From the NCBI GenBank assembly GCA_965220995.1, contig OZ244856.1, forward strand, positions 450,928 to 514,927: a stretch of DNA of 64,000 nucleotides, read 5' to 3'. This DNA comes from Acidimicrobiia bacterium. Its GTDB lineage: Bacteria; Actinomycetota; Acidimicrobiia; Spongiisociales; ZC4RG35. A program made the position numbers and the translations under genes. The notes beneath the pieces were generated by a model. The model saw only the letters and a list, made by a program, of their open reading frames with translations. It ran no database searches and had not been told where the DNA came from. Shown piece after piece: positions 3,681 through 57,310 of this stretch (its first letter is position 1; each line of letters opens with the position of its first letter).

Positions 3681-3700
3681 TCCAGTAAGCTTGAGATAGT

Positions 3701-3714
3701 CCTGAGCGCTCAGG
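3701..3714. terminator. Weak palindromic hairpin between the convergent MMPL and amidohydrolase genes.
   Basis: CCTGAGCGCTCAGG self-complementary 14-mer. No strong U-tract. Confidence 0.2.
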
Positions 3715-3778
3715 TCTGTGTTGCCCTCTCCCGCCGGGAGCAGGGACCTGGTGGCCGGCTGGGATGGACGATCGGCGT

Positions 3779-10141: not shown

Positions 10142-11302
10142 TCAAACGGTCACCGCCACCGGGGCCGACCTTGATTCGGCCTGGGGCGCCCGGGCGTACC
10201 CCTGCGAGTCGACCGCTCCCAACACCTTGGGCAGCAGATCGGGATCTATCCAGCGCCGGGTCTGATATGACGGATAGACCGGCAGCCGGGGGAGAAGTCG
10301 AAATCCGGCGCTCTCGGTGCGGCGGCGCAGTTCCTCGAGATGAGGCCAGGGCGCCTCCGGATTCACCCAGTCGATCGTGAGCGGAGAAACCCCACCCCAA
10401 TCATTGATTCCCGCTCGAAGGTAAACCTCATAACTCTCGGTGAGGTTGGGAGGGACCTGAATGTTCATCTCGGGGCCCATTATCCACCGGGCCAGGGCCA
10501 CCACCCGCATGAACCAGGACGGAATCGGCTCGGCGTCGAGCCGCATGGGAGTGTTGTATTTGGCTCGAAAATTCTGGACTATGACTTCCTGGATTTGGCC
10601 ACCGCTGCGGGCCATCTCGGCCAGAGCCGCCAAAGAATCCACTATTTCTCCCGAGTTTTCCCCGATCCCCACCAGGATGCCGGTGGTGAAGGGAATCCGC
10701 AACCGCCCGGCGTCCTCTATAACCTGCACCCGCACCGACGGGACCTTGTCGGGGCAGTTGAAGTGCGGCATGCCGGGCTCCAAAAGACGGGGAGAGATGT
10801 TTTCGAGCATCAAACCCATCGACGGATTGGAAGGGCGAAGCTCCCGCAACTGGGACAGGGTCATGACACCCGGGTTGGCATGGGGAAACAGGGCCGTCTC
10901 CCGGTTGACCATCTCGGTCATCCGCCGGGTGTACTCCAAGGTCGTGTCACATTCCTGCTCGTCCAGGAACCTCCGCGCCGCCGGCCAGCGCTCCTCGGGC
11001 CGATCGCCCAGGGTGAACAGCGCCTCGGTGCAGTGGTGAGCCTCCCCGGCCCGGGCAACGGCCAGCACCTGTTCGGGAGGCATGAACATCCCGCCTCCGC
11101 CCGGCGGCTGAGCGAATGTGCAGTAGGTGCAGGAGTCACGGCACAAGGTGGTGAGAGGCACGAACACCTTGCGGCTGTAGGTGATGGTTCTGCCCTTGCC
11201 CTCATCCCGCAGTCGGCCGGCCTCGGCAAACAACGGTTCGGCCGACCGCCCCCCCTCCAAATAGGCAATCGCCAGGTCCCGATCAAACGCCGGATGGGTC
11301 AT
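10142..11302 (-). CDS. cofG: FO synthase subunit CofG (7,8-didemethyl-8-hydroxy-5-deazariboflavin synthase, radical SAM).
   Basis: CRDSCTYCTF radical-SAM motif near the N-terminus. 386 aa, similar to CofG and the FbiC N-terminal half. It sits 163 nt upstream of cofH on the same strand in a different frame. Confidence 0.75.
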   Translation of the reverse strand: MTHPAFDRDLAIAYLEGGRSAEPLFAEAGRLRDEGKGRTITYSRKVFVPLTTLCRDSCTYCTFAQPPGGGGMFMPPEQVLAVARAGEAHHCTEALFTLGDRPEERWPAARRFLDEQECDTTLEYTRRMTEMVNRETALFPHANPGVMTLSQLRELRPSNPSMGLMLENISPRLLEPGMPHFNCPDKVPSVRVQVIEDAGRLRIPFTTGILVGIGENSGEIVDSLAALAEMARSGGQIQEVIVQNFRAKYNTPMRLDAEPIPSWFMRVVALARWIMGPEMNIQVPPNLTESYEVYLRAGINDWGGVSPLTIDWVNPEAPWPHLEELRRRTESAGFRLLPRLPVYPSYQTRRWIDPDLLPKVLGAVDSQGYARAPQAESRSAPVAVTV

Positions 11303-11454
11303 GTGCGCCCCCCGTTGCGCGGCCCGTCATCCCGAGGCATCCCCCGGGGAGGGTGGTTGACCGTCGGGAGACTGCGCCCGAACCCACAACCACTATCCGG
11401 TGGCCGCCGGGGTGGATCGGGCGCCGGACCCGACACCCCGCAAGCTCGGAACAT

Positions 11455-12231
11455 CTATCCCATCCCCGGAGATGCGCCCAGCATGCCGCCGTCCACCGGC
11501 AGGATCGCCCCCGTGATCCAGGAAGACTCCTCCGAGCAGAGAAACGCCACTGCCGAAGCCACATCCTCGGGCTCTCCCAATCGTTGCAGCGGATGACGGC
11601 GGGCCGTTCCCTCCGGGTCCGACTGCCACAGCAAGGCCGACAGTCGGGTCTTCACCACCGCCGGGGCCACCGCATTCACCCGGACGCGGGGCGCCAACTC
11701 CATGGCCAATTGCTGGGTCATATAGATCAAGGCCGCCTTGGAGATGTTGTAGGCCCCGAGAATGGGAGTGGGACGCACTCCTCCCACCGAGGCCACGTTC
11801 ACCACACAGCCACCGTGCTCGCCCAACCACTGCGACCATGCCTCCCGGGTCCAAACCAACGGCGCCCGCAGATTCACCGCCCAGGTCTTGTCCACCGCCT
11901 CCTGGGAAACCCCCATGAGATCCCCGGCCCCCGGATTGGTGCCGGCGTTGTTCACCAGTATGTCACAACTGCCGTAGCTTTCAATGGTCCGCCCGATCGC
12001 CCGGTAAGCGTGTTCATCCCGATCCGCCCGGGCCACCACCGGGAGTATCCGTTCGGAATCAGCGCCCGCCTCCACCAAATCGGAGACGGCCCCGGCGAGA
12101 TTGTCGGCCTTGCGGGAGGTGATGGTTACTCCCGCCGCTCCGCGGTCAAGCAGGGTCTTGGCCACCGCCAGACCGATGCCTCTGCTGGCGCCGGTGATCA
12201 CCGCCGCCTTGCCTGATATGCCCACGCTCAA
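11455..12231 (-). CDS. SDR-family short-chain dehydrogenase/reductase.
   Basis: Rossmann motif GKAAVITGASRGIG. NNAG motif and YNISK catalytic Tyr/Lys. Start set at TTG 12231, which has a GGAGG Shine-Dalgarno about 10 nt upstream; the track ORF extends to 12318. Confidence 0.75.
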   Translation of the reverse strand: MSVGISGKAAVITGASRGIGLAVAKTLLDRGAAGVTITSRKADNLAGAVSDLVEAGADSERILPVVARADRDEHAYRAIGRTIESYGSCDILVNNAGTNPGAGDLMGVSQEAVDKTWAVNLRAPLVWTREAWSQWLGEHGGCVVNVASVGGVRPTPILGAYNISKAALIYMTQQLAMELAPRVRVNAVAPAVVKTRLSALLWQSDPEGTARRHPLQRLGEPEDVASAVAFLCSEESSWITGAILPVDGGMLGASPGMG

Positions 12232-12289
12232 AGAGTTCTTTTCCTCCGGAGCCGCCGTTCGGCCAGTGTACCCCTTGCGCCCCGGGGTC

Positions 12290-13531
12290 TCAGCCCGACG
12301 GCTTCTGTCCCCGGGCAACCAGCTTCACCTGTTGGCGGCGCGTCACGGCGGAATTGGGATCCGGGAGGATCTCGAGCAACCGCCGCCGGTCCTCCTCGGC
12401 CAGGGCGGCCGCGGAGTGATCGGCCGCCGCCAGACGGGCATCCACGCCTTCCTCCACCAGCCTACGACCCTCACTGACCAGCGCTTCCACCATCTCCGAT
12501 TCGGGCACCACCTTCACCACCTGCCCTTTGATAAACAGATGACCCCGGCCCCGACCGGCGGCTATCCCCAAGTCAGCCGACCGAGCCTCCCCTGGACCGT
12601 TCACCACGCAGCCCATCACCGCCACCTGAATGGGGAGATTCTCGGCCTCCAATGCCTTCTGCGCCACCTGCGCCACTTCTATCACATCGACCTCTGCTCT
12701 GCCACAGGAGGGACAGGCGATGAGATCGAGGCTGCGCCGCTGCCGAAGACCCAGATATTCCAACAGGCGTCGGCCCGATTCGGCTTCGGAAACCGGATCG
12801 GCGGTCAGGGAAAACCGAATGGTGTCTCCGATGCCTTCCATCAGAAGGGTGGCGATTCCCGCCACCGATTTGATCAAACCCCCCGGCGGGGGCCCCGCCT
12901 CGGTAACTCCCAGGTGAAGCGGGTATTCCACCCGGTCGGCCAGCAGCCGATAGGAGTCGACCATGCTGGGAACATGGGAGTGCTTGACCGAGATCTTTAT
13001 GTCCCGAAAATCGACCTCCTCCAGGTACCTGATCTCCAACAGCGCCGACTCCACCAGCGCCTCGGGAGTGGCGTTACCGTGCCGCGCCAGGATGTCCTTG
13101 TCCAGCGAACCGGCGTTCACCCCCACCCGAATCGGTATGCCCCGCTCGCCGGCCGCCCGCGCCACCTCCTTGATGTGGCTGGGCCGACGGATGTTGCCCG
13201 GATTGAGGCGCAACCCGGAAACGCCGCTCTCCAGGGCGGCCAAGGCCAGCCGATACTGAAAGTGGATGTCGGCAATAATGGGAACCGGGCTGCGGGGAAC
13301 GATCTCGGCCAAACCTTGGGCAGCCTCCACGGTGTTGCAGGTAATCCTCACCAGGTCGGCGCCCGCCGCAGCCAAGGCGTACACCTGCGCCAAGGTGCCA
13401 TCGACATCATGGGTCTTGGTGGTGGTCATCGACTGAACACTCACCGGGGCGTCGCCACCCACCTCCACCGATCCCACCTTAACCGGCCGGGTGACGCGGC
13501 GGGGATGCCGGGTGAGGCGCGCGTCTTTCAC
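12290..13531 (-). CDS. ispG: 4-hydroxy-3-methylbut-2-en-1-yl diphosphate synthase (flavodoxin), IspG/GcpE.
   Basis: GcpE family pattern throughout, with Cys ligands (CPSCGR...C). Overlaps rseP by 4 nt, matching the rseP-ispG order of actinobacteria. Confidence 0.85.
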   Translation of the reverse strand: MKDARLTRHPRRVTRPVKVGSVEVGGDAPVSVQSMTTTKTHDVDGTLAQVYALAAAGADLVRITCNTVEAAQGLAEIVPRSPVPIIADIHFQYRLALAALESGVSGLRLNPGNIRRPSHIKEVARAAGERGIPIRVGVNAGSLDKDILARHGNATPEALVESALLEIRYLEEVDFRDIKISVKHSHVPSMVDSYRLLADRVEYPLHLGVTEAGPPPGGLIKSVAGIATLLMEGIGDTIRFSLTADPVSEAESGRRLLEYLGLRQRRSLDLIACPSCGRAEVDVIEVAQVAQKALEAENLPIQVAVMGCVVNGPGEARSADLGIAAGRGRGHLFIKGQVVKVVPESEMVEALVSEGRRLVEEGVDARLAAADHSAAALAEEDRRRLLEILPDPNSAVTRRQQVKLVARGQKPSG

Positions 13532-19760: not shown

Positions 19761-20825
19761 TCATCCCTTGGGACGAATCACACCACCCTCCTTGACCACC
19801 TTTCCTTCCGACTCCAGTTCGCCGATCCTCACCAACATTCGCGACAGCGGCCAACCCGTTTTTTCCATGAGTTCCTGTACCGCGACGCCGCTATCCCCGA
19901 TGGCCGCCAGCAGTTCATCCTGCCCCTGATCCTGCGACTCCCCGACGGTGGGCGCCACCACGCCCTCGGACTCCAGGAATTCCAGCAATTCCGAGGTGCT
20001 CAGCACCGGCAGGGCGCCGTCGCGGATCAGTTCGTTGCACCCCCGGGAGGTGGCCCGGTCGATGTCGCCAGGGATCGCCAACACTTCCCGTCCCTGTTCC
20101 AAACCCAACCGGGCGCTGATCAAGGCCCCGCCGCCGATGGCTGCCTCCACCACCAGCACCACCCGGGACAGACCGGTGATGATGCGGTTTCGGACCGGAA
20201 AGCGCCAAGGCTCCGGCACGGTTCCCGGAGGATATTCGGTGACCACCGCCCCACCACCCTGCAACAAAGCCTCCCCCAGGCTCCGATGAGAGACCGGATA
20301 CCAGCGATCGGGACCCGAGCCCAACACCGCGATCCCGCGGCCACCCGCTTCCACCACGCCGCGATGGGCGGACCCGTCCACCCCGCGGGCCAGTCCGCTG
20401 ATCACCGCCACGCCCCTTCGTCCCAGGGCGGCGCCCATCGTGCGAGCCAGATTGAGGCCGTAGCGGGTCGCTCGCCTTGATCCCACCACCGCCACTCCGG
20501 CCTCGGCGGGCAGATCTCCTCTGACAAACAGCACATCCGGGGGATCAGGAATGGCGGCCAGCCAGGGGGGATATTCCTCCGTCCCCAGCAACACCACTCC
20601 CACCCCCGCCGTCCGAAGTTCTTCCATCCGCCGGGAACTGGGGACCGAAACGGCCTTACGGGCGGCCGGCGGGCACTTGACCCGCCCGGTCTCGATCATC
20701 CGCACCGCTCCGGCCGGATCGCCGGCCTTCTGCACCAGGGAGTGGAGCCGACCGGGATGCAAACCCGAGTAGGCCAGCCTCACCCGGTGATCGAAGTAGG
20801 GGCAGGGCGGCCGGGGCGCGTTCAC
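19761..20825 (-). CDS. dprA: DNA-processing protein DprA (Smf).
   Basis: DprA Rossmann core (VAVVGSRRATRYG...VISGLARGVDGSAHRG...VLGSGPD) and a C-terminal winged-helix-like tail. Confidence 0.85.
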   Translation of the reverse strand: MNAPRPPCPYFDHRVRLAYSGLHPGRLHSLVQKAGDPAGAVRMIETGRVKCPPAARKAVSVPSSRRMEELRTAGVGVVLLGTEEYPPWLAAIPDPPDVLFVRGDLPAEAGVAVVGSRRATRYGLNLARTMGAALGRRGVAVISGLARGVDGSAHRGVVEAGGRGIAVLGSGPDRWYPVSHRSLGEALLQGGGAVVTEYPPGTVPEPWRFPVRNRIITGLSRVVLVVEAAIGGGALISARLGLEQGREVLAIPGDIDRATSRGCNELIRDGALPVLSTSELLEFLESEGVVAPTVGESQDQGQDELLAAIGDSGVAVQELMEKTGWPLSRMLVRIGELESEGKVVKEGGVIRPKG

Positions 20826-22288
20826 AAACCGGCCCGGTAGGCCAGCGCTTCCAGAACGTGGGCTTTGCGCACCGGCGTAGAACCTTCCAGATCGGCCAGG
20901 GTGCGGGAGACCCGCCGAACCCGATCGTATCCCCTGCCGGTCAAAAGGCCCTGGTCCAGATTGCGGGAAAGCGCCTTTTTGGCCGGTTCGCTCCAGGACA
21001 GGGCGTCCAGGCGCGAGGAAGTGAGATCACCGTTCAGGGCGCCGCGGGCCACTTGTCTCCGGCGAGCCTGCTCCACTCGGCCGCCCACCGCGGCGCTTGT
21101 TTCACCGGGCGCCCCGGTGAGTTCATCGGTCTCCATGCGTCCCAGGAACACCCGCACATCAAACCGATCCAGCAGTGGGCCCGACAGACGCCGCCGATAG
21201 CGATCCAAAGAGGCGGGTGAGCATCGGCACCGCTTCACGGTGTCGTTGCGCCATCCACACGGGCAGGGATTGGTGGCGGCCACCACCAGGGGGCGTCCCG
21301 GGAAGGTGGTGGAGATGCCCCGGCGGGTGATGGTCACGCAACCTTCTTCCAGCGGTTGGCGAAGAGCATCGATCAGGTGAGCCGGAAACTCCCCCAATTC
21401 ATCCAGAAAGAGCACCCCGTGGTGGGCCAGAGACAGATCCCCGGGCACCGGTATTCCGCTTCCCCCTCCCAGCAGGCCCACCAGGGAGACGGTGTGATGG
21501 GGAGCGCGGAAGGGTCGCCCAAAACCGGTCCGCCGGCGGTCCCCGGCCGCCCAAACCAGGGCCAGTTCCATTTCTTCGGACTTGGTCAGGGGAGGAAGAA
21601 TGCCCGGCAGGCGCTTGGCCAGCATGGTTTTTCCCATACCGGGAGGTCCCGACATCAGAAGATGGTGCCCGCCGGCGGCCGCGATTTCCATTCCCCGCCG
21701 TGCGAAGTCCTGACCCCTCACCTCCGCCAGGTCGAGCGCCGAAGAAGCGGGTGGCCGTTCGGCGTTCGGAACCACCGGTTCGACCTCCCCTTCCAGTACC
21801 CCGATGGCGTCCGACAATCTCTCCACCGCATACAGTTCCACCTCGGGCACCAGGGCCGCCTCCGACAGAGCCTCCCGGGGCGCCAGACAGGGAAGACCCT
21901 TCCGGGCAGCCACCAGGGCGGCGGCCAGGACGCCTTTGGACCGGCGCACCCGGCCATCCAGAGCCAATTCCCCAACCGCCACCACCCCCGGATGCCGGGG
22001 GGCGGCCTTGCCGTCGGCGATCAGCACCCCCAGGGCGATGGGAAGATCATATGCGGAACCGGCCTTGGGCAGGTCGGCCGGGGCCAGGTTGACGGTAACT
22101 TCGCTGCGGGGCATGTCATAACCCGACGACGCCATGGCGGCCTTCACCCGATAACGAGCCTCCCTCACGGCCGTGTCCGGCAGACCCACCAATCCGAACT
22201 TGGAGTTGGTCCTGCCCAGGTGCACCTCCACATTGACCGCCCGGGGATCGACCCCCACCATGGCAGCGGATAACATTGCACTGTTCAT
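20822..22288 (-). CDS. comM: YifB/ComM-family Mg-chelatase-like AAA+ ATPase.
   Basis: Lon-like N-domain, Walker A (MSGPPGMGKTMLAKRL) and a C-terminal ChlI/Mg-chelatase domain. Confidence 0.85.
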   Translation of the reverse strand: MNSAMLSAAMVGVDPRAVNVEVHLGRTNSKFGLVGLPDTAVREARYRVKAAMASSGYDMPRSEVTVNLAPADLPKAGSAYDLPIALGVLIADGKAAPRHPGVVAVGELALDGRVRRSKGVLAAALVAARKGLPCLAPREALSEAALVPEVELYAVERLSDAIGVLEGEVEPVVPNAERPPASSALDLAEVRGQDFARRGMEIAAAGGHHLLMSGPPGMGKTMLAKRLPGILPPLTKSEEMELALVWAAGDRRRTGFGRPFRAPHHTVSLVGLLGGGSGIPVPGDLSLAHHGVLFLDELGEFPAHLIDALRQPLEEGCVTITRRGISTTFPGRPLVVAATNPCPCGWRNDTVKRCRCSPASLDRYRRRLSGPLLDRFDVRVFLGRMETDELTGAPGETSAAVGGRVEQARRRQVARGALNGDLTSSRLDALSWSEPAKKALSRNLDQGLLTGRGYDRVRRVSRTLADLEGSTPVRKAHVLEALAYRAGL

Positions 22289-30283: not shown

Positions 30284-30667
30284 CTATTGGGCCGAGACTA
30301 TTTCTACCTGGTACTCGGCCAGATCACGATCGCAGGTCACCAACTCAAGGTCTTCCATTAGCGCCTGCGCCACCAGCATGTGGTCGAACGGATCCCGATG
30401 CAACCAAGGCAGTTCACCCACCCGGGCCGCGTGTTCCACGGTGATGGCCAGTAGGGCGAATCCGCAATCTCTCAACACCTGTTCGGCGCCATCGGGCACC
30501 GACAGTTTGCCGATGGAACTCTTGATGGCCATCTCCCATATGCTGACGGCGCTGACTGCCACATAGTTGTCCGGACTGGCGATCAGACGACGCGCCGTTT
30601 GGCCAAGCCGGCGGTCATCGGACAGCCACCACAACACCACATGAGTGTCCAGAAGAAGCCTTCGCAC
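30284..30667 (-). CDS. vapC: Type II toxin VapC (PIN-domain ribonuclease).
   Basis: PIN-domain pattern with conserved acidic residues (LLLDTHVVLWW...D). 127 aa, directly downstream of a small antitoxin gene. Confidence 0.75.
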   Translation of the reverse strand: MRRLLLDTHVVLWWLSDDRRLGQTARRLIASPDNYVAVSAVSIWEMAIKSSIGKLSVPDGAEQVLRDCGFALLAITVEHAARVGELPWLHRDPFDHMLVAQALMEDLELVTCDRDLAEYQVEIVSAQ

Positions 30668-30669
30668 CG

Positions 30670-30912
30670 TCAGGCGGGGTGCTTGACGCCCTCAAAAGCG
30701 GCAATTACCTCCGGAGACGTGGTGTCGAAATCGGGTGCCATCCACACCTTCCCCTTCCATGCACCAGGGAGGCGAGAGGCCGGTTCGTAGACGGCCAACC
30801 GCAGATAGGGCTCACCGTTGCGACAGATCACCACTTCTTCTCCCGCCCATACCAAACGACCCAGCCGCGACAACTGCGACTTGGCTTCGTGCATGTTCAC
30901 CCGAGTGGTCAT
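30670..30912 (-). CDS. vapB: Type II antitoxin (Phd/YefM-like VapB).
   Basis: 80 aa beginning MTTRVNMHEAKSQLSRL, a typical Phd/YefM antitoxin N-terminus. Lies 2 nt upstream of vapC. Confidence 0.7.
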   Translation of the reverse strand: MTTRVNMHEAKSQLSRLGRLVWAGEEVVICRNGEPYLRLAVYEPASRLPGAWKGKVWMAPDFDTTSPEVIAAFEGVKHPA

Positions 30913-32297: not shown

Positions 32298-33269
32298 TCA
32301 GGCGGTTTTCCCAAACATTGAAAGCTGCTCCGGCCGGGAGGAATCACCTTCTGAGAGTCCTTTGCCATCCTGGTGCGGGGGATGCAGCATTGCCTCCAGT
32401 TCGTCGACGGATCGGATGGGTACCGCGCCCCGCTTTTCCAGCGTCTCATTTCCCGGGCCTTCTCCCGCTCCCCTCCAGACTCCGACCCGCAGACCTCCTT
32501 TGAGAGCCTCGGTCGCCCCCGACCATGTGCCTCCCTTGCCCGTCTCGCTGGCCACTGCCACCGTGAGGTTGGACAAGGCGTAGATAATCTTGTTCCGTCC
32601 CATGGCGTTCCATACCCGGAAAGGGGCCTTGGGACTGTAAGGAGTACACATGACGGCGCGCTCCTCGTGGATTGCTCTGCGCACATCGGGGCTTTGCAAC
32701 CCACGCATAAACGACCCCGCCAGGACGCCGATGATGGTTCCTCCTGCCTGTATGGCGGCGTTCATAGCCAGTTGATCCACCCCACGCGCTCCGCCGGAGA
32801 CCACCGGATAGCCGAGTTCCACTGCCTTCCCCGCGATGCCCCTGGCCGCTTCCGCCCCCTCGGGGGAGACATCACGGCTGCCCACCACCCCGATACCGGG
32901 CTGATCAAGCAATCCAAAAGCTCCGGCGGCGTAAATCAGGGCGGGGGCCTTGGGTCCGAGTCGACAAACCAGACGCTGGGGAAAATGGTCATCAAAATGG
33001 GTAACTGTCCGAATACCGGAATGTTCGAGTTGCTCCAATTCGAAAGCCATGACTCTCACCCGATCCAGCAACACCCATACCCGGTCCGCCAGCGCATCGG
33101 ACAATCCGTAATCCCTCACCATCTCTTTCCGGTCCTGCCCCAACAACGCGCCAGGCCGCGGGCAGGTCTCTAGAAGTCGCCAGTACTCCCGCGCCGAGAG
33201 AGGCCGTACCTCCTTGCCATGCATCCGGCTCACCAAGAGCACCGTGGCAGCCGAGTCGTCATTCCTCAC
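32298..33269 (-). CDS. DprA/Smf-like (SLOG/DNA_processg_A fold) protein; candidate PsyrA-like antitoxin partner.
   Basis: GIGVVGSRDVSPEGAEAARGIAGKAVELGYPVVSGGARGVDQLAMNAAIQAGGTIIGVLAG, the DprA Rossmann signature. Overlaps the upstream RecQ-PRTase gene by 4 nt. Confidence 0.6.
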   Translation of the reverse strand: MRNDDSAATVLLVSRMHGKEVRPLSAREYWRLLETCPRPGALLGQDRKEMVRDYGLSDALADRVWVLLDRVRVMAFELEQLEHSGIRTVTHFDDHFPQRLVCRLGPKAPALIYAAGAFGLLDQPGIGVVGSRDVSPEGAEAARGIAGKAVELGYPVVSGGARGVDQLAMNAAIQAGGTIIGVLAGSFMRGLQSPDVRRAIHEERAVMCTPYSPKAPFRVWNAMGRNKIIYALSNLTVAVASETGKGGTWSGATEALKGGLRVGVWRGAGEGPGNETLEKRGAVPIRSVDELEAMLHPPHQDGKGLSEGDSSRPEQLSMFGKTA

Positions 33270-35329
33270 CTGATTGATCTCCCGCTGGCATCAGCCAAGG
33301 CAAAGGGGTAAACCGAACCTGATCCGGCCAGAAGCAACTCACTACCCACGGCTGTCAGGGTCCACCTGGAATCAACGACATCATCCACGAGCAACACCGG
33401 ACCTCTGGGAACCGCCCCCACGATCCTAAATGCGTCTCGGACGTTCCGATGTTGTTGATGGCTGTTTTGCATAGTTTTCTGTGGCTCCGTGTCACGGACC
33501 TTTTCAACCACATTCTTATAAGGAACTCTCAGCAATGCCGCCAAACGAGCCGCAAAGTCCTCAACGAGGTCTGGATTTCTCAACGATGGAACAGAGGCAG
33601 CCCAGGCCGGAAAAGGCTGAGGCGCCCACCGATTTCTGATCAGATCGGCGGCGGCCGCCACCAATCGCTCATCAAAGCGCCCTTCCGATTGCTTGCCCGA
33701 ACGGACGAGAGTCCCCCAACCACCATCCTTCCAGACCGCCAGGGCCCGTCCTGGTTCGACGAGTTGGTCCTTGGCGATTCTCTTCCGGTTCGGCCATTGT
33801 TTGCGTGGTTCGATGTTCAGATCGACCCCTCGAAGGAACTCGATAACCCTTTGGACAACGGCGGGATCAAGACGAATTGCAAGGCTCAAACCAGTGCAGT
33901 TATCACAGATGCCACACGGATTTGCTATCAGGTCGTCGAGGTAGGAGCCCAAGAGTTGCATACGACAGGCGCCGGTTCGTATGTACTCGTTCATCTGCTT
34001 TTGCTCGACCCTCCGCTGAGCAGTAACCAACTCAACCCGGCGCCGATCGAATTTCCACCCTTTCAAAGTTCTTCGCCAGACAGAGCCTTCCTGTTCAACC
34101 GCCCCCTCAACCTCGAGATTCTTCAGCAGCTTCTCGAGTTGACCCCAACCGATATTCAACGACTGGAACAACTCGTCCCGAGACACCCCTTCCGTCTTCT
34201 CCTCCAGCAAGGCCACCACCTGCTCGGCTTGTGGTGCGGCCGGGAAGGCCCCCTGGATGAAGTAATCCTGAATGTCGGTGTCTTCTCCACCGCGCAACAG
34301 TATGCCCCAAGACTCGTTCAGTGAACGGCCCGCCCGGCCCACTTGTTGGTAATACGAGATCGGCGAACCGGGTGACTGGTAGTGAATTACAAAGGAGAGA
34401 TCAGGTTTGTCGAAACCCATACCGAGGGCTGAGGTTGCAACCACCACCTTCACCTGATTGGACAGGAGAGCCTGTTCAATCCCAACCCGGTCTTCAGAGT
34501 GCAAACGACCCCAGTATGAAACCGCCGAGATTCCAACTGATGACAGCCATTCCCCTACCCGCTGTGCATCTCTTACGGTGAGGCAATAGATCACCCCTGT
34601 TCCATCCAATCTTGACAGTTGGTCGGCCAGCCATGCCAGACGCTCCGCCTGTGATGGGATCTCGAGGACATGCAACCGTAGTCCGCGACGCGCCAAGGTT
34701 CCCCTGACAGTGGATAACCCTGAACCCAGTTGGTCAACGATGTCTCCTACGACGCGGTCATTGGCCGTCGCCGTGCAACACAGAATCGGGACACCGGGAA
34801 GGAGCCTCAGAACGCGGGTGATCCTCCGGTAGTCAGGCCGGAAATCGTGGCCCCAGTCGGAAATGCAATGTGCTTCGTCAATCACCAGCAGCCCGCTTCT
34901 CCGCAGGATGACCGGCAGGAGTTCGCCCCGGAACTTGCGATTGGCCAGCCGCTCCGGCGATATCAATAACAGGTCAACCGCATCGGCATATAGTTTCTCT
35001 TCCACCTCCGCCCACTGTGCCGGGTTAGAACTGTTGATAGTCTCAGCCCTGACACCCATTCGCTCTGCAGCTTCAATCTGATTGCGCATCAGGGCCAACA
35101 GAGGGGAAATCAGGAGGGTAGGCCCCGCACCTCGCGTCCGGAGCATTCGGGTTGCAATAAAGTACACCGCGCTTTTGCCCCACCCGGTTCGCTGAACCAG
35201 GAGAACCCGTCGGAGTTCTGCAACCAGTCCGCGGATCGCGTCGAGTTGACCCTCCCGGAAGTCAGTTGTCGGATCCCCGGTCAGCTTGCGCAGAGAATCC
35301 AGAGCTTCCGAAGCAAACTTGTCACTCAT
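33266..35329 (-). CDS. RecQ-family DNA helicase fused to a C-terminal ComF/GntX-type phosphoribosyltransferase domain; candidate PsyrT-like toxin/defense helicase.
   Basis: Helicase motifs: Walker A TGWGKS; motif II DEAHCISDWGHDFRPDY. RecQ Zn-finger CRMQ...CGICDNC. C-terminal PRTase signature RNVRDAFRIVGAVPRGPVLLVDDVVDSRWTLTAVGSEL. Local GC is clearly lower (about 48-55%) than the surrounding DNA. Confidence 0.65.
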   Translation of the reverse strand: MSDKFASEALDSLRKLTGDPTTDFREGQLDAIRGLVAELRRVLLVQRTGWGKSAVYFIATRMLRTRGAGPTLLISPLLALMRNQIEAAERMGVRAETINSSNPAQWAEVEEKLYADAVDLLLISPERLANRKFRGELLPVILRRSGLLVIDEAHCISDWGHDFRPDYRRITRVLRLLPGVPILCCTATANDRVVGDIVDQLGSGLSTVRGTLARRGLRLHVLEIPSQAERLAWLADQLSRLDGTGVIYCLTVRDAQRVGEWLSSVGISAVSYWGRLHSEDRVGIEQALLSNQVKVVVATSALGMGFDKPDLSFVIHYQSPGSPISYYQQVGRAGRSLNESWGILLRGGEDTDIQDYFIQGAFPAAPQAEQVVALLEEKTEGVSRDELFQSLNIGWGQLEKLLKNLEVEGAVEQEGSVWRRTLKGWKFDRRRVELVTAQRRVEQKQMNEYIRTGACRMQLLGSYLDDLIANPCGICDNCTGLSLAIRLDPAVVQRVIEFLRGVDLNIEPRKQWPNRKRIAKDQLVEPGRALAVWKDGGWGTLVRSGKQSEGRFDERLVAAAADLIRNRWAPQPFPAWAASVPSLRNPDLVEDFAARLAALLRVPYKNVVEKVRDTEPQKTMQNSHQQHRNVRDAFRIVGAVPRGPVLLVDDVVDSRWTLTAVGSELLLAGSGSVYPFALADASGRSIR

Positions 35330-35503
35330 TGATTGGGGACCCCCGGATAGCTGATTCTCAGTTGCTGTGTATAGGCAAGCCTATTTGAAGGGTGTGACAT
35401 CGAGCCCGGACCCGATAAGCACCCAGCACCTCCCAAGCACACCTGTATTACAAACGCGGCTTGCCGTCGGGGCTGCCGCAGCGCAGGGCCCGGGGCGCAA
35501 CTC

Positions 35504-36415
35504 CTACCAGAGGACCTGGTTGGTGGCGCTTTTCACCGCGTCGTCAATGGATCCGGTGTAGATCCCGGTGGAGAGATACTTCCAGCCCGCGTCGGGGAAG
35601 ATGGTGACCACGGTGCCCGATCGCATCTCGCCGGCTATCCGCAGAGCCACCGCCAGGGCCGCTCCGCAGGAAGGGCCGGCGAACATGCCTCCCACGGATA
35701 ACAGGCGGCGGGTGTGTTCGATGGTTGGGGCAAGCCGCACCAGTATCCGGCGATCGATCCGGTCGGCGTCGAAGATGGGAGGAACGTAACCGTCGTCTAT
35801 GGAACGCAGGCCGGTGATCAACTCCCCCATGGGAGGTTCGGCCGCCACCACCCGGGCCCCCGGGAAGGACTCGCGGATCGCCGCGCCTGCCCCCATCAAC
35901 GTTCCCCCGGTTCCCAGGCCGGCCACCAACGCATCCACCCGGTCGAGTTCCTCCACGATCTCCCGGCCGGTCCCCCGGTAGTGGGCCTCCACATTGGCCG
36001 GGTTTTCGTATTGGTTGAGCATCAGATAGTCGCCGCCGGCCGCCAGTTCCTCGGCCATGCGCACCGCACCGTTCGATCCCTCCTCTCCGGGAGAAAAGAC
36101 AATCTCGGCGCCGAAGGTTCTCAGGGTCTCGATCCGCTCGGCGCTGGCGCCTTCCGCCATCACCACCGTGAACGGCAATCCCTCCATCGCCGCCAGGCGA
36201 GCCAGGGCGATGCCGGTGTTCCCCGAGGAAGGTTCCAACAGACGTATCCCGGAGGTCAGAAGTCCCTCCGAGCGGGCCCCTTCCACCATCGCCACCGCAA
36301 TCCGGTCCTTGATCGATCCGGTGGGCAGTACCCACTCCAGTTTGGCAAATATGTCGACGCCCCCCTGCGAAAAGGCATCCAATCGGACCAGGGGAGTGGG
36401 AAACAGGCCCATCAT
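35504..36415 (-). CDS. cysM: Cysteine synthase CysM (uses the thiocarboxylated sulfur carrier CysO).
   Basis: PLP-dependent fold with Lys motif TGSIKDR and Gly-rich loop GLGTGGT. Position downstream of cysO and mec matches the mycobacterial pathway. Confidence 0.8.
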   Translation of the reverse strand: MMGLFPTPLVRLDAFSQGGVDIFAKLEWVLPTGSIKDRIAVAMVEGARSEGLLTSGIRLLEPSSGNTGIALARLAAMEGLPFTVVMAEGASAERIETLRTFGAEIVFSPGEEGSNGAVRMAEELAAGGDYLMLNQYENPANVEAHYRGTGREIVEELDRVDALVAGLGTGGTLMGAGAAIRESFPGARVVAAEPPMGELITGLRSIDDGYVPPIFDADRIDRRILVRLAPTIEHTRRLLSVGGMFAGPSCGAALAVALRIAGEMRSGTVVTIFPDAGWKYLSTGIYTGSIDDAVKSATNQVLW

Positions 36416-36431
36416 TGTGAAAAGACGGCGA

Positions 36432-36707
36432 TCAACCCCCGGCCACCGAGGGCAGAATAATTATCTCCGAGGGTTGGGAAATGGGAGTGTCGAGTCCCTG
36501 CAGGTAGCGGATGTCCTCGTCATTGAGGAAGACGTTGACGAACACGGGCACCGATCCGTCCGGATCCAGCAGTTGGCGGGCCAACCCCGGATACCGTTTT
36601 CCCAGGTCCGAGAAGGTTTCCGCCACCGTGGCGCCGCAGGCCGCCACCGAGGCCTCCCCTCCGGCGTGAACCCTGAGAATGGTGGGTAGGCGAATGGTGT
36701 GGGTCAT
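36432..36707 (-). CDS. cysO: ThiS/MoaD-family sulfur carrier protein CysO.
   Basis: 91-aa beta-grasp protein ending in the diglycine AGG. Confidence 0.75.
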   Translation of the reverse strand: MTHTIRLPTILRVHAGGEASVAACGATVAETFSDLGKRYPGLARQLLDPDGSVPVFVNVFLNDEDIRYLQGLDTPISQPSEIIILPSVAGG

Positions 36708-36721
36708 GGTTTGTGTTCCTC

Positions 36722-37150
36722 CTATGGGCGAGAGTCAAAGCTCAGGGCGGTCTCGGCGATCTGATCATCCCGGATCCGGAAGCCCCGCACCGCCAGGGTA
36801 TCCATTCTTTCCATCCCCACCAGTATGTACAGCCAGTCGGGATCGGGAGCCAGGGCCACGTCGGTGGGCGACGGATAGGCAGGTGAGTGGGTATGGGAGT
36901 GGAATACTCCCACCAGATCCCATCCCCGCAACCGGGCATGACGCATGGTCTTGAAGTGTTCGGCCGGGTCGATCACGTAGTTGACCCGGGAGTGGGCGAT
37001 GTTGGTGAGCGGGTAGGCCTTGGTCAGGACGCCGTCGGGACGGCCGGCCAGCAACCCGCATGCCTCTTCGGGGTAGCAGTCCCGGGCGTGATCCACCATT
37101 ACCCGGCGGATGGTTTCGGGAATGCGGATGGTTGCATGTTCGTCAGACAT
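36722..37150 (-). CDS. mec: JAMM/MPN+ metalloprotease Mec (cleaves the CysO-cysteine adduct).
   Basis: JAMM motif E...HSHTHSPAYPSPTD. 142 aa. Confidence 0.8.
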   Translation of the reverse strand: MSDEHATIRIPETIRRVMVDHARDCYPEEACGLLAGRPDGVLTKAYPLTNIAHSRVNYVIDPAEHFKTMRHARLRGWDLVGVFHSHTHSPAYPSPTDVALAPDPDWLYILVGMERMDTLAVRGFRIRDDQIAETALSFDSRP

Positions 37151-37185
37151 TGGAATACCCCGTCGGGCGGGGAAGGCCGAGTCGG

Positions 37186-38364
37186 TCAGACGGTCCTGGA
37201 AACCGACCCGGCGGGCATACAGTACTGGTCGTATTCGACGATCGCCGGTGGGCGGCTTTCGTCAGAGCATGCGACACAGTCGGGGTTCCTACGCAGCCGG
37301 AGAGTCCGGAACTCCTGGGTCAGAGCGTCGTAGGCCAAGAGCTTGCCGACCAGCGGTTCGCCAATCCCCAGCAGGATCTTGATGGCCTCCATGGCCTCGA
37401 TGGAACCGACAATTCCCGGCAGCACCCCCAACACCCCCGCCTCCGCACAGGACGGCGCCAGTTCGGGGGGAGGAGGTTGGGGAAACAGGCACCGATAGCA
37501 GGGCCCACGGTAAGGAGCAAAGACGCTGGCCTGGCCCTCGAAACGGAAGATTGCTCCGTGCACCACCGGGGTCCGGAGGTGAAGCGAGGCGTCGTTCACC
37601 AGGTAGCGGGTGGGGAAATTGTCGCCACCGTCCACCACCAGGTCGTATCCGGACATGATGTCCAGGGCGTTTTGAGCAGACAGCCGCTGCCCATAGGGCT
37701 CCACCTTCACGTCCGGATTGAGGGCGGTGAGGGTCTCCCGCGCCGAATCCACCTTGGGATGACCCAAGCGATCCATGTTGTGCAGTATTTGGCGCTGCAG
37801 GTTGGAGGCATCCACCACATCGAAGTCCACTATTCCCAGCGTCCCCACTCCCGCCGCCGCCAGGTAGAGAGCGGCAGGGGAACCCAATCCACCGGCTCCC
37901 ACCAGCAAGACCCGGGAATTGAGCAACTTGGCCTGGCCCTCCTCACCCACCTCCGGCAGCAGAGTGTGTCGGCTGTAGCGCATTTTCTGATCCGATGAAA
38001 GCGTGATCGGCTCAGACCAGGGACGACCCTCCGCCTTCCACAGGCCGAATCCCCCATCCATCGAAACAACGTTGCTGTATCCCAGATTCTGGAGGGAGAG
38101 GGCGGCCAACGCCGACCGCGCCCCGCCCGCGCAATAGACCACGATCTCGGTGTTGGGATCGGGCGCCTGCATGGAAATGGATGACTCCAACAGACCCCGG
38201 GGGATCAGTTGCGCGCCCGGAATGGCGCCCTGTTCGTACTCCTCGTGCTCCCGAACATCCAGCAACAGCATTCCGGCGTCTCCCAAACGCGGCTCCACAT
38301 CGGCAGGGGTCACTTCCCTGATCTGGGCTTTGGCTCGTCTGAGTAGATCCTGAAAAGTCAGCAT
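37186..38364 (-). CDS. moeZ: MoeZ/MoeB-like E1 sulfur-carrier adenylyltransferase with the rhodanese domain at the N-terminus (order reversed versus canonical MoeZ).
   Basis: aa 10-115 are rhodanese (Cys loop CAGGARS). aa 120-392 are ThiF/MoeB (GAGGLGSPAALYLAAAGVG, FEGQASVF, CYRC...CVAC zinc knuckle). Confidence 0.75.
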   Translation of the reverse strand: MLTFQDLLRRAKAQIREVTPADVEPRLGDAGMLLLDVREHEEYEQGAIPGAQLIPRGLLESSISMQAPDPNTEIVVYCAGGARSALAALSLQNLGYSNVVSMDGGFGLWKAEGRPWSEPITLSSDQKMRYSRHTLLPEVGEEGQAKLLNSRVLLVGAGGLGSPAALYLAAAGVGTLGIVDFDVVDASNLQRQILHNMDRLGHPKVDSARETLTALNPDVKVEPYGQRLSAQNALDIMSGYDLVVDGGDNFPTRYLVNDASLHLRTPVVHGAIFRFEGQASVFAPYRGPCYRCLFPQPPPPELAPSCAEAGVLGVLPGIVGSIEAMEAIKILLGIGEPLVGKLLAYDALTQEFRTLRLRRNPDCVACSDESRPPAIVEYDQYCMPAGSVSRTV

Positions 38365-54026: not shown

Positions 54027-55551
54027 TAGTTGCGGGAGGCTTTGAGGAAACGTCGTAGAGGACCCGATTGATCCCCTCCACTTCGCCGATCACCCTCCGG
54101 GAGATGGCGGAAAGCACCTCATAGGGCAACCGAGCCCAGTCGGCCGTCATCGCTTCGGAACTCTCCACGGCGCGCACCACCAGGGGATAGGCGTAGGTCC
54201 GCCCGTCTCCCTGGACTCCCACCGAGCGGATGGCCGGCAGCACTCCGAACACCTGCCAGAGACTGCGATACAGCCCGGCCCGACGGATCTCGTCCAGCAC
54301 GATGGTGTCGGCCCTTCGCAGCAGGTCGAGCCGGTCGGGCGTCACCTCGCCGATGATGCGGATCGCCAGACCCGGCCCCGGGAAGGGATGGCGCCAGACG
54401 ACCTCCTCGGGAAGCCCCAACTGCTCCCCCACCGCCCGGACCTCGTCCTTGAACAGGTCGCGGAGCGGTTCCACCAACTCCAAGCGCATGTGGGCGGGGA
54501 GTCCACCCACATTGTGGTGGCTTTTGATCACCGCCGCATCTCCTCCTCCCGATTCGATCACATCGGGGTACAGGGTTCCCTGCACCAGAAATCGACATTC
54601 CGGGAGCCGATCGGACACCTCCTCGAAGACTTTGATGAAGGTCTCACCGATCAGTTTTCGTTTCTTTTCGGGATCGGTCACGCCCTCCAGAACACCCAGG
54701 AACCGGTCTTGGGCCTTGACATGGATCAGGTTGGTGTCAAAGTTCCGGCCGAACACCTCCTCGACCTGCTCTGCCTCGCCTTCCCGAAGGAGACCATGGT
54801 CCACGAACACACAGGTGAGGCGATCCCCGATAGCCCGATGCACCAACGCGGCGGCGACTGCCGAATCCACCCCGCCCGACAGCCCGCACACCGCCCGGGC
54901 CTCTCCGATCTGACGCCGTATGTTCTCCACCTCGGTCTCGATGATGGATTCGGCCGTCCAGGAACCGCGGGCGCCGCACGCCCCGTAGAGAAACCTCTGC
55001 AGCACTTCCATGCCTTGGGGGGTGTGGGTGACCTCGGGGTGGAATTGCACCCCGTAGAGACCTCGATCGGGGTTTTCCATGGCGGCCACCGCCGCTCCGG
55101 GGGTGCGGGCGGTGACCCGGAAACCCTCGGGCGCCTCCACCACCGCGTCGCGGTGGCTCATCCATACGTCTGCAGGGGAAGGAAGGTCCCTCAAAAGCAG
55201 TGAAGGGCCCAAAGTGTCCAGGACGGTGTTCCCAAACTCCCCGGCGCCGGTGGCCGACACCACCCCTCCTGTGTGTTTGGCGATCAGTTGATGTCCATAA
55301 CAGATGCCCAGCACCGGGATTCCCAGGGACAGCAGACCGGGATCGATGGACACGGCGTCCGGTGAGTAGACCGAGGCCGGCCCGCCCGAAAGAACAATTC
55401 CCGAAGGAGACCGCGCCATGGCCTGAGAAGCGGTGATCCGAGCCGGCACTATCTCCGAATGCACCCGGGCTTCCCGGATCCGCCGGGCGATCAGGCGGGC
55501 GTACTGCGCCCCCAGATCCACCACCAGCACATTGTCGGCGGAAGAGTTCAA
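54013..55551 (-). CDS. guaA: GMP synthase (glutamine-hydrolysing).
   Basis: GATase-1 (GICYGHQ), the ATP-PPase P-loop SGGVDS, and the C-terminal IEWE. Start set at TTG 55551 overlapping the guaB3 stop (TTGA). The 704-aa track ORF extends into guaB3. Confidence 0.85.
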
Positions 55552-56705
55552 TCCATCCCCGGCTGCCGGGCCCGTTGCATCCCTTTGCCCTCGTTCAGGA
55601 AGGAGGGGGCGATCGCAACTTCCGCCTTCTGGAATTCCAGGACATTGGAGTAGCCGGTGGTGGACATCGACCGCCGCAGCGCCCCGAAGAGATTGGTCAA
55701 CCCCTCGGATTCGGTGGCCGGCCCCAACATGATCTCCGCCAAGGTTCCCCGGGTGGGCGCATTGATCCTCACACCCCTCGGCAGGGAGGGATGAAACGAT
55801 GACATGCCCCAATGGAAACCTCGTCCGGGGGCTTCGGAGGCGGCGGCCAGGGGAGAACCCAGCATCACGGCATCCGCCCCACAGGCGATGGCCTTGGCGA
55901 TCTCGCCCCCGGTCCTCATCCCCCCGTCGGCGATCACATGCACGTATCGCCCCGTCTCCAACAGATAATGGACCCGCGCCCCCGCCGCGTCGGCTATCGC
56001 AGTGGCCTGTGAAACGCCCACCCCCAACACCCTCCGGGTGACACTGGCCGCTCCCGGACCCACTCCCACCAGCACCCCCACCGCCCCGGTGCGCATCAGA
56101 TGAAGGGCCATCGAGTAGGAGGAACACCCCCCCACCACCACCGGCGTGGAAGATTGCGCGATGAACTTCTTGAGGTTCAAGGGTTCGGTTCGTGTAGACA
56201 CATGCTCGGCGGAAACCACCGTTCCCTGGATCACCAGGAGGTCCAAACCCGCCTCCGTCGCCAGATGGGCGTATTCCAAGGTGTGCTGCGGGGTGAGACT
56301 GGCGGCCGAAACCACCCCGGCATCCCGGATCTGCCGGATGCGGTCGCCGATCAACGAATCCTTGATGGGCTCCCGGTAGACCTCCTGCAAGAGAGCCCTG
56401 GCCTCGGTGTCCGAGGCCGCGGCGATTTCTTCATAGATGGGATCGGGATCCTGATAGCGGGTCCACAGGCCCTCCAGGTTCAGCACCCCCAGGCCGCCCA
56501 GTCGCCCCACTTCAATCACCATTTCCGGACTCATCGTGGAATCCATGGCGGCGCCCATCATGGGAAGCGAAAACGGGTAGGCCTCCAGCTGCCATCCCAG
56601 ATCCACATCGTCGGAGTCCCGGGTGCGACGAGTAGGCACAATCGCAATGTCATCCAGCCCGTATACTCGCCGCGCCGTTTTTCCTATGCCTATGTCAACG
56701 GCCAT
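55548..56705 (-). CDS. guaB3: IMP-dehydrogenase-family protein lacking CBS domains (GuaB3-like).
   Basis: 385 aa. IMPDH TIM-barrel with the Cys loop (GVGPGA...). No CBS pair. N-terminus matches GuaB3-type proteins. Confidence 0.75.
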
Positions 56706-56977
56706 TCAATCCTTCTCCCGGTGTGGGTGCCCGACGGCTGAACCCGCTCGGCTGTCCCGGCTTCGGTTCGTTCGCCTCTGGCCACTGTTTCACTCTTTTG
56801 GGCCTGCCCAAAGGCTACCAAATCGCAGCGACAATTCCGGCGAGTCGGACGATGGACGCCGGGGCGGGGGCCATGTGCCGACCGTGACCGATTCCTATGC
56901 CTTGATTGGGAACACGAGCTCAATGGCCTCTTTGTGAACTGCATAAATGAAAGGGCCGGGACGCCGGCAAGCCTCCG

Positions 56978-57310
56978 TTATCCGACGCAGGTTATTAACA
57001 AACGAGCCACCATCTCCTCCGCAGTGAGACCGCGACGGGAGAGGGCAAAGACTTGGACGGGGTGAGCGGCCACCCTCTCCCGCTCAAGCCGGTTTTTTCT
57101 GATAGCCCCATCCTTGGTGAATACAATCCAACCCTCAGCCCCGGACTTCTCCAGCCAGTCGGTATCAAGAACCTTCTCATCAGCAGGCACTCCGTATACC
57201 TCGGCAAGAGTTACCAAATCCAGGCCCTCGGCGCGAAGTAGGTTGGGTACCTTACGGCGGCCCAGGCTGCGATCCAAAAAAATTCTAGGCAGCCCTGCGG
57301 GATGTGACAC
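56978..57310 (-). CDS. DUF5615-family PIN-like protein; putative toxin partner of the DUF433 protein.
   Basis: Pattern IFLDRSLGRRKVPNLLRAEGLDLVTL...WIVFTKDGAIR matches DUF5615/Mut7-C-like small PIN proteins. GTG start at 57310 overlaps the upstream gene by 26 nt. Confidence 0.5.
   Translation of the reverse strand: MSHPAGLPRIFLDRSLGRRKVPNLLRAEGLDLVTLAEVYGVPADEKVLDTDWLEKSGAEGWIVFTKDGAIRKNRLERERVAAHPVQVFALSRRGLTAEEMVARLLITCVG

Follow-up and report, generated by a model that had tools for sequence, protein, structure and literature searches.

In this work we analyse 64,000 nucleotides of contig OZ244856.1 from an Acidimicrobiia (Actinomycetota) genome, a stretch that we refer to as the window. 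We consider it very probable that two overlapping genes in the window, psyrT (rqlH) and psyrA (rqlI), form a chromosomal PsyrTA operon, also named RqlHI; this explanation best accounts for the results as a whole. The kind is already known, as it has been published as RqlH (2012), PsyrTA (2013), RqlHI (2015) and an anti-phage system (2022). PsyrTA itself was reported as a toxin-antitoxin pair (Sberro et al. 2013) and later as an anti-phage system (Millman et al. 2022, bioRxiv 10.1101/2022.05.11.491447). A first-pass annotation, made from the letters of the window, had proposed a PsyrTA-like module at this locus, and the PADLOC profiles agree. The PsyrT model (PDLC03928) scores 877.6 bits (E=1.4e-264) and aligns amino acids (aa) 7-683 with model positions 6-686 of 689, and the PsyrA model (PDLC03927) scores 268.7 bits (E=2.3e-80) over model positions 5-310 of 398.

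Both genes lie on the minus strand, as do all of their features given below. The psyrT gene (33266..35329) opens with ATG and encodes 687 aa, a fusion of a RecQ-like helicase and a phosphoribosyltransferase (PRTase) that is the predicted toxin. The psyrA gene (32298..33269) opens with GTG and encodes a DprA-like protein of 323 aa, the predicted antitoxin, in a short form without a C-terminal helix-turn-helix (HTH). The two open reading frames (ORFs) are where the first-pass annotation had put them, with the lengths it gave and with its 4-nt overlap of start and stop, GTGA, at 33266..33269. This overlap couples psyrA translationally to psyrT, and it is also present in loci L001 and L060-L066, where the L numbers stand for genomic regions from other genomes that we used for comparison. 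Full-length homologues of PsyrT number in the thousands in a protein homology search, at 64-76% identity, and several of them are labelled Acidimicrobiia. The exact PsyrT sequence exists in the protein collection; the closest PsyrA there is 86% identical, possibly through a different GTG start call.

The N-terminal half of PsyrT is a superfamily 2 (SF2) helicase core (aa ~22-347, 34289..35266), identified by the Pfam models DEAD (79 bits) and Helicase_C (61 bits) and by a match to a RecQ structure in the PDB (4q47, E=7e-54 over aa 9-347). The motif map places the Walker A sequence GWGKS at aa 49-53 (35171..35185), the DEAH box at aa 151-154 (34868..34879) and motif VI, QQVGRAGR, at 34325..34348. 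A linker that is specific to RqlH, described for the Mycobacterium smegmatis protein (PMC3378886), follows at aa ~360-430 (34040..34252), with weak, sub-threshold Pfam winged-helix matches (HTH_45, DprA_WH) at aa 362-427. Next comes a tetracysteine zinc module, C455-x16-C472-xx-C475-xx-C478 (33896..33967), which aligns with the zinc region of D. radiodurans RecQ and scores 24.9 bits with RecQ_Zn_bind, a borderline value for a gathering score of 25. HRDC gave zero matches for PsyrT in any profile library scanned, so that the complete RecQ SF2 core with a zinc module and no HRDC, as first annotated, is confirmed. The protein passes the RecQ-family subfamily model recQ_fam (237.6 bits, cut-off 219.8) and falls far below the RecQ equivalog models TIGR01389 (280.6 against a cut-off of 640) and NF008279 (212 against 1015). 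By these profiles PsyrT is distinct from the housekeeping RecQ.

The C-terminal domain (aa 485-687, 33269..33877) had been annotated as a PRTase of the ComF/GntX type. At the level of sequence this match is weak, with 17 bits for Pfam Pribosyltran, below its cut-off, and 29 bits for GntX. A phmmer search of the PDB with the C-terminus found only insignificant matches to the PRPP (phosphoribosyl pyrophosphate) loop, at E of at least 0.04, and for this reason we turned to a search by structure. An AlphaFold2 model of aa 485-687, built with 31 homologues, has a predicted local distance difference test score (pLDDT) of 82 and a predicted TM-score (pTM) of 0.81. Foldseek matched this model to PurF (1ecb, E=3e-5), H. 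pylori ComF (7p0h, E=6e-5), adenine phosphoribosyltransferases (APRTs) and PyrR, and its longest alignment was to the toxin ShosT (8zvd; 198 columns, TMq 0.51). The modelled fold thus confirms a type-I PRTase/ComF domain with its PRPP loop intact. The loop, LLVDDVVDSRWT, occupies aa 646-657 (33359..33394), with LLVDDVVDS at aa 646-654 and the aspartates at D649/D650. The Walker A lysine, the DEAH aspartate, motif VI, the zinc cysteines and the PRPP-loop aspartates are all intact in PsyrT; K49 and D148 of the helicase and D663 of the PRPP loop are the equivalents studied in homologues (PMC3378886, PMC4670107).

The 323-aa partner was described as having a DprA/SLOG fold, and here too the profiles (DNA_processg_A at 122 bits, SLOG cluster 4) and the structural model concur. 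The AlphaFold2 model of PsyrA has a pLDDT of 90 and consists of a helical N-terminal domain, a Rossmann domain and a disordered tail. The first of these (aa 1-83, 33021..33269) is SAM-like, with six helices in the model; a SAM domain has been described for the antitoxin ShosA (PMC11961720). The Rossmann (DprA/SLOG) domain at aa 85-297 (32379..33017) is delimited by the profiles, the motif map, the model and Foldseek, and holds the motif GGARGVD (32775..32795). The top Foldseek match of PsyrA is ShosA (8zva, E=1e-16), followed by the DprA structures 3maj and 3uqz, and the alignments to ShosA and DprA are full-length. PsyrA does not reach the DprA equivalog TIGR00732 (95.5 bits, cut-off 191.15). 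The first-pass annotation had pointed to a separate housekeeping dprA at 19761..20825, and this gene does score above the cut-off (224 bits against 191), carries DprA_WH and adjoins a comM-like gene, the dprA-comM pair spanning 19761..22288. On these profile scores PsyrA is distinct from the housekeeping DprA.

The comparison with related genomes provides an independent view of the two genes. A search of GTDB species genomes, with the flanking CysM as query, gave 16 syntenic Acidimicrobiia loci (CysM 76-89% identical) with the order purH-folD-moeZ-mec-cysO-cysM, then a slot, then chrA. In the window the cluster cysM-cysO(ThiS-like)-mec(JAB)-moeZ(ThiF and rhodanese) lies at 35504..38364 on the minus strand; it corresponds to a sulfur-carrier-protein cysteine pathway like that of M. 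tuberculosis, and every relative has it, strictly conserved, on the upstream side of the slot. The contents of the slot vary. An intact psyrT-psyrA is found in 3 of the 16 loci (L007, L010, L016), with PsyrT 74% and PsyrA 64-66% identical to the window proteins. Five others (L002, L005, L006, L011, L013) have psyrA and only the last 31-82 codons of psyrT. Two are fragmentary, one with a serine-recombinase ORF and the 3' half of psyrA (L008) and one with the first 27 codons before the contig ends (L004). The slot is empty in a further five (L003, L009, L012, L014, L015), and in one the locus is rearranged (L017). The pair is therefore absent or degraded in most relatives. The first-pass annotation had named a conserved presence at the same locus in all relatives, with normal GC, as a result that would refute its reading, and this is not what the loci show.

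The degraded cassettes lie at 11078..13258 (L002), 11022..12085 (L005), 2964..4081 (L006), 10980..12142 (L011) and 11047..12263 (L013), and in the same order psyrT is broken at residues ~605, ~657, ~638, ~624 and ~613. Five different breakpoints imply several independent deletions of psyrT in which psyrA was retained. One of them, L002, is an internal deletion: the first 19 codons of psyrT are kept, an insertion sequence (IS) transposase is present, and psyrA is truncated at its N-terminus (304 aa, ~20 codons short). By eye, from the translations, the ORF between the psyrT stub and psyrA in L002 (11395..12114, minus) is a DDE-type transposase, and the ORF in L008 that stands in place of psyrT and the 5' half of psyrA (11203..11814, plus) is serine-recombinase-like. 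Four of the five orphan psyrA genes are full-length ORFs. Their dN/dS ratios are 0.12-0.29 with dS mostly saturated, and because of this saturation they are only weak evidence of continued selection. Loss of psyrT with retention of psyrA looks like the decay pattern of a toxin-antitoxin pair, and argues against an indispensable repair helicase. From this series we infer that the cassette is old in the clade and costly, and that it is often inactivated when the toxin gene is deleted and that of the antitoxin stays.

The composition of the cassette bears on its history. The GC content is 57.0% for psyrT and 61.9% for psyrA, compared with 63.75% for the window, and psyrT is the lowest-GC 2-kb stretch of the window, with a GC content at third codon positions (GC3) of 0.62 against 0.75-0.80 in its neighbours. 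The dip seen in the first pass is thus real and is the deepest in the window, but the value then given for the helicase gene, about 50%, was too low. The same low composition is found in every carrier in the clade (~57% GC, GC3 ~0.60, against flanks of ~65% and ~0.78). Since it is shared by all of them, it is a long-standing property of the cassette in this lineage, and a recent acquisition by this genome cannot be read from it: relatives with PsyrT 74% identical have the cassette at the same cysM|chrA slot with the same 57% GC. We note that GC3 has stayed unameliorated despite saturated synonymous divergence, for which allelic replacement, low expression or constraint are all possible reasons. 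PsyrA identities are uncorrelated with flank identities (r=0.09, Mantel p ~0.33), and on the same matrices simple vertical inheritance is unsupported. PsyrT is 73-76% identical between all clade carriers, regardless of flank identity. Given this independence from the flanks, lateral exchange may have taken place at the slot to some extent.

The cassette is also found in other settings. In each of six distinct contexts (L001, L062-L066) a DprA-like gene comes after psyrT and overlaps it by 4 nt, and in L062-L066, from five other genomes, this partner has 323-381 aa. The neighbours in those five loci include transposases, RES-Xre, Phd-PIN, PemK, a DNA methylase, M78-HTH proteins and a CBASS E2 gene. 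The cassette GC equals the local GC in L062, L063, L065 and L066 and is a few points lower in L064.

What might drive expression of the operon? When the cysM-psyrT spacers are aligned almost nothing is conserved beyond one block, TGTCACAY-N8-TAnnnT. In the window this is a promoter-like element, TGTCACAC-N8-TAGGCT, at 35378..35399 (minus), with the -10-like hexamer TAGGCT at 35378..35383 (minus). The 22-nt pattern TGTCACA-N9-TAnnnT occurs once in the window, where 0.01 occurrences are expected by chance. Beyond the window the element was found in 12 further psyrT upstream regions. Eight are related loci in which it precedes psyrT or its stub (positions L002 10995, L004 10999, L006 2852, L007 10986, L008 11000, L010 11001, L013 10984 and L016 10983). 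The other four belong to the five unrelated psyrTA contexts, where it lies ~30 nt upstream of the start codon (L062, at 5899, and L063, L065 and L066; chance ~3e-5 per 150 nt) and is absent upstream of psyrT in L064. The geometry of TGTCAC-N10-TAGGCT is identical to that of the in-vivo PafBC motif, tGTCgg(N10)tA(N3)T (PMC8635444), and of the RecA-NDp/P1 consensus, tTGTCRgtg-8nt-TAnnnT (PMC5656591): the element has the bipartite form of 22 nt, with TGTC at about -26, a fixed spacing and a TAnnnT -10. PafBC is activated by single-stranded DNA (ssDNA; PMC11804915), and the protein level of M. smegmatis RqlH (MSMEG_5935) drops 1.9-fold in a pafBC deletion mutant (PMC5656591). With moderate confidence, and from the geometry of the motif, we propose that the operon is driven by a cassette-borne promoter of the PafBC type that responds to DNA damage or ssDNA.

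Two details speak against this promoter assignment. The mycobacterial gg or Rgtg after TGTC is not matched, all instances having ACAC or ACAG at these weakly conserved positions, and the sole other match to TGTCR-N11-TAnnnT in the window, at 56812..56833 (minus), is one where 0.52 are expected. Being within chance expectation, that second match was rejected as independent support for PafBC; it lies ~105 nt upstream of a gene of the IMPDH/GMP-reductase family (55548..56705), which guaA follows. Scans for consensus sigma-70 promoters and intrinsic terminators gave nothing above chance.

The distance from the element to psyrT would give a 5' untranslated region of ~40 nt in the window, and its position at about -30 from the start codon would make the mRNAs near-leaderless in L063, L065 and L066. 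In L062 (5900..6003) a 24-nt segment, GGTGCGTACAGTCCGGGCTCGATG, occurs twice upstream of psyrT; it includes the -10-like hexamer as well as a start codon. The true psyrT start may lie ~78 nt upstream of the annotated one, or the promoter may be duplicated.

Overlapping the -10-like hexamer is an inverted repeat, ATAGGC-nn-GCCTAT (35371..35384), through which autoregulation of the operon had been suggested. The repeat does exist, with its centre ~48 nt before the ATG, but it has lost its significance: outside the window the exact repeat is absent from every related locus, and the TAGGCT hexamer of the conserved promoter block accounts for its left arm. With arms of 6 nt and no counterpart in related loci it does not exceed what chance alone can produce and is probably fortuitous. 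We have rejected it as an operator, as it is conserved in no relative, and the proposed autoregulation, which would also have to do without an HTH in PsyrA, is unsupported.

A second candidate link to the DNA-damage and replication machinery is found at the other end of the cassette. The last residues of PsyrA form a disordered tail (aa 299-323, 32301..32375, pLDDT <50; peptide SRPEQLSMFGKTA) that carries QLSMF at aa 315-319 (32313..32327), similar to the QxxLF motif for binding the β sliding clamp. The published clamp-binding consensus is QL[S/D]LF, more generally QxxLF, typically at C-termini (PMC12309361, PMC4549789), and PsyrA has such a pentapeptide in an exposed, disordered C-terminal segment. 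All 14 of the 14 PsyrA proteins from the loci (L002-L016 and L062-L066 sets) have a variable tail rich in Pro, Glu and Ser, and then Q-x-x-[LM]-F. The motif is in the last 25 aa of 101 of 120 close PsyrA homologues; the remaining parts of these proteins give a background of 0.0014 per 25 aa. It is also found in the tails of 40 of 150 diverse representatives of 50% clusters (background ~0.003 per 25 aa), which include ~400-aa forms with a C-terminal winged helix. Within the window one of the 172 ORFs of >=150 aa has it, presumably PsyrA itself, and the housekeeping DprA does not. This distribution suggests that the tail may hold PsyrA at the β sliding clamp. An alternative is that the tail is a degron, as the disordered C-terminus of ShosA confers instability (PMC11961720). 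The literature that we searched holds no report tying a clamp-binding motif to DprA-like antitoxins, which is not proof of novelty, and there we also did not find the PafBC-type promoter and clamp-like tail of PsyrTA described.

If PsyrT behaves as its homologues do, it would translocate 3'-5' on ssDNA, as M. smegmatis RqlH does, and its PRTase domain would use PRPP. Left unchecked, this activity would be genotoxic, inducing the SOS response and filamentation, by analogy with the D663A mutant of Escherichia coli RqlH and with ShosT. PsyrA would neutralise PsyrT by binding it, in line with the co-immunoprecipitation of RqlI with RqlH, or by binding ssDNA with RecA-dependent repair, as for ShosA, or both. 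Where the supply or the function of the antitoxin fails, for example through a phage-induced shut-off of transcription or through phage ssDNA intermediates, DNA damage would follow and the infection would be aborted. To this outline we would add that the operon may be transcribed from its own ssDNA- or damage-responsive promoter of the PafBC/RecA-NDp type, that PsyrA may sit on the β sliding clamp through the C-terminal QxxLF, and that the fitness cost of PsyrT may drive the repeated loss of psyrT in the clade. A bolder proposal combines these elements: PsyrTA of Actinomycetota would be doubly wired into the replication and damage machinery, by the promoter and by the clamp tether, so that the antitoxin patrols replication forks and its displacement from the clamp, or a flood of phage ssDNA, unleashes the toxin, and the orphan psyrA genes would be domesticated, clamp-bound paralogues of DprA. 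As a whole we regard this combination as rather unlikely. The first-pass statement that such a pair is mechanistically unexplored does not stand, given the biochemistry of RqlH (PMC3378886), the genetics of RqlHI (PMC4670107) and the mechanism of ShosTA (PMC11961720, PMC12961424).

Several points weigh against reading the pair as a toxin-antitoxin operon with a defence role. For the toxicity of PsyrT, its neutralisation by PsyrA and a role in phage defence we extrapolate from homologues in proteobacteria and mycobacteria. Phage protection by a native E. coli PsyrTA was undetectable, and most Gram-positive RqlH proteins have no RqlI, which is evidently tolerated (Russell and Mulvey, PMC4670107), so the toxicity of PsyrT may depend on the lineage. 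The window operon is not part of a defence island; genes for cysteine biosynthesis flank it on one side and a chromate transporter gene on the other. PsyrA is also without the C-terminal HTH of the E. coli RqlI type, as its profile match ends at 310 of 398, and its model shows no extra domain. In E. coli F11, RqlI has 400 aa and an HTH at 320-400 that is dispensable (PMC4670107), hence this domain is not a defining feature of the family. A different account of the pair, possible but doubtful in our view, is that it is mainly a module for the repair of DNA damage, in which RqlH is a repair helicase with RqlI as its DprA-like loader or partner, and toxicity is an artefact of unbalanced expression. 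This overlaps the PsyrTA operon explanation, shares most of its steps and is not strictly exclusive of it. A repair role would suit the PafBC/RecA-NDp-like promoter conserved with the cassette, the PafBC dependence of MSMEG_5935, the chromosomal slot that is stable across the clade and the QxxLF clamp-type tail, which is typical for replication and repair factors. It would also suit the lack of phage protection by a native E. coli system, the absence of a classical RecQ from mycobacteria that have RqlH (PMC3378886) and the cooperative, beneficial function on DNA that Russell and Mulvey have proposed (PMC4670107). The decay series points the other way: just 4 of the 17 clade genomes have an intact pair, and repeated deletion of psyrT with psyrA kept resembles the decay of a toxin-antitoxin pair, not that of a useful helicase. 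Furthermore, the cassette elsewhere adjoins transposases, RES-Xre, Phd-PIN, PemK, a methylase and a CBASS E2 gene, its composition is atypical for the genome, and for PsyrTA anti-phage activity was reported together with a psyrA deletion construct that could not be transformed (bioRxiv 10.1101/2022.05.11.491447).

The original picture of a recent horizontal island that is autoregulated by its antitoxin through ATAGGC-nn-GCCTAT is largely refuted, and we now think it improbable. The depressed GC and GC3 of psyrT, the existence of the repeat and the failure of PsyrA divergence to track the flanks, with PsyrT at 73-76% throughout, are what it has to offer. Against these stand the shared slot, orientation and 57% GC in relatives whose PsyrT is 74% identical and whose dS is saturated, the absence of the repeat from all relatives and the missing HTH of PsyrA. 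We found no att-like direct repeats on either side of the cassette, nor an integrase or a tRNA next to it in the window, where Rfam and tRNA scans gave zero matches, and with a slot that is common to the clade we have rejected a recent island insertion. Could the window copy instead be a decaying, non-functional remnant like those of its relatives? Most relatives are indeed degraded, and those closest by their flanking genes (L002, L003, L005) are without psyrT. Yet both ORFs in the window are full length, every motif of the helicase, the zinc module and the PRPP loop is intact, as are the promoter element and the overlap, and the HMM coverage runs from end to end, which makes a remnant highly improbable. 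The PsyrTA operon remains our preferred explanation.

The gene pair itself adds little, as PsyrTA/RqlHI is catalogued and can be called by standard defence finders. Of more value is the series of decay in one slot, where selection removes the helicase-PRTase gene but leaves the DprA-like gene in place. Comparative evidence of this sort supports the roles of toxin and antitoxin independently, and does so in a phylum whose RqlH had been regarded as solitary. The promoter of the cassette, taken with the PafBC-dependent RqlH of mycobacteria, suggests a testable link from an anti-phage toxin-antitoxin module to the ssDNA-sensing damage response, and the QxxLF tail leads to a concrete hypothesis, DnaN binding, for how PsyrA is positioned or sensed.

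Two other gene pairs in the window deserve mention. A vapBC-like pair lies beyond chrA at 30284..30912 (minus), with a PIN toxin and an upstream gene of 80 aa (GC 0.59-0.60). It is present in L005, L010, L013 and L016 and absent from the other relatives, and this variable presence marks it as a second accessory toxin-antitoxin module that adjoins this conserved block. Elsewhere in the window, another patch of low GC (57.7%, 57001-58000) contains overlapping genes with PIN_10 and HTH_66/DUF433 domains (56978..58004, minus), which are probably another pair of the toxin-antitoxin type.

Finally, we compare the window pair with the known systems. It is like PsyrTA in the full-length HMM matches of both proteins, the toxin-first order, the overlapping genes and the combination of a helicase-PRTase with a DprA-like partner. 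It is unlike the PsyrTA model in the short 323-aa form of its PsyrA, its housekeeping neighbourhood and its uncultured Acidimicrobiia host. The competence proteins ComF(C) and DprA provide a more distant likeness: ComF (7p0h) is the second-best match of the PsyrT domain, and DprA is second and third for PsyrA. The DprA of the window differs from PsyrA in having no QxxLF tail, and PsyrA is far below the equivalog cut-off for DprA (95 against 191 bits).

ShosTA (PDB 8zva, 8zvd, 9vzo) is also a PRTase toxin with a DprA-like antitoxin, and both antitoxins have a disordered C-terminal tail. Its toxicity depends on PRPP, and its antitoxin binds ssDNA and RecA and has an unstable C-terminal tail (PMC11961720, PMC12961424). 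Among solved structures ShosA comes closest to PsyrA, and the C-terminal domain of PsyrT aligns with ShosT over the 198 columns given above. However, the N-terminus of ShosT is a pyrophosphatase domain whereas that of PsyrT is a helicase, and the ShosA HMM scores 106.5 bits on PsyrA, well below the 268.7 bits of the PsyrA model. ShosTA is reported as type IV, its two proteins not binding each other directly; RqlH and RqlI, in contrast, co-immunoprecipitate.

The RqlH-RqlI pair of E. coli F11 belongs to the same two families, with rqlH upstream and rqlI overlapping or adjacent. There the PRPP pocket of the PRTase (D663) is required for genotoxicity (Russell and Mulvey 2015, PMC4670107), and the DprA-like RqlI interacts with RqlH and restrains it. 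The survey in that study found RqlI almost only in Gram-negative bacteria and no Gram-positives with RqlI only. In contrast, the actinobacterial clade studied here has both genes, and derivatives with RqlI only are found in five related species. RqlH of M. smegmatis, a 3'-5' helicase with an ATPase, a linker, a zinc module and a ComF/PRTase domain (Ordonez et al. 2012, PMC3378886), is solitary and without RqlI, whereas the cassette described here is paired and variably present. The two share a phylum, the same order of domains and the lack of HRDC, and the PafBC dependence of the mycobacterial protein fits the geometry of the promoter in the window.

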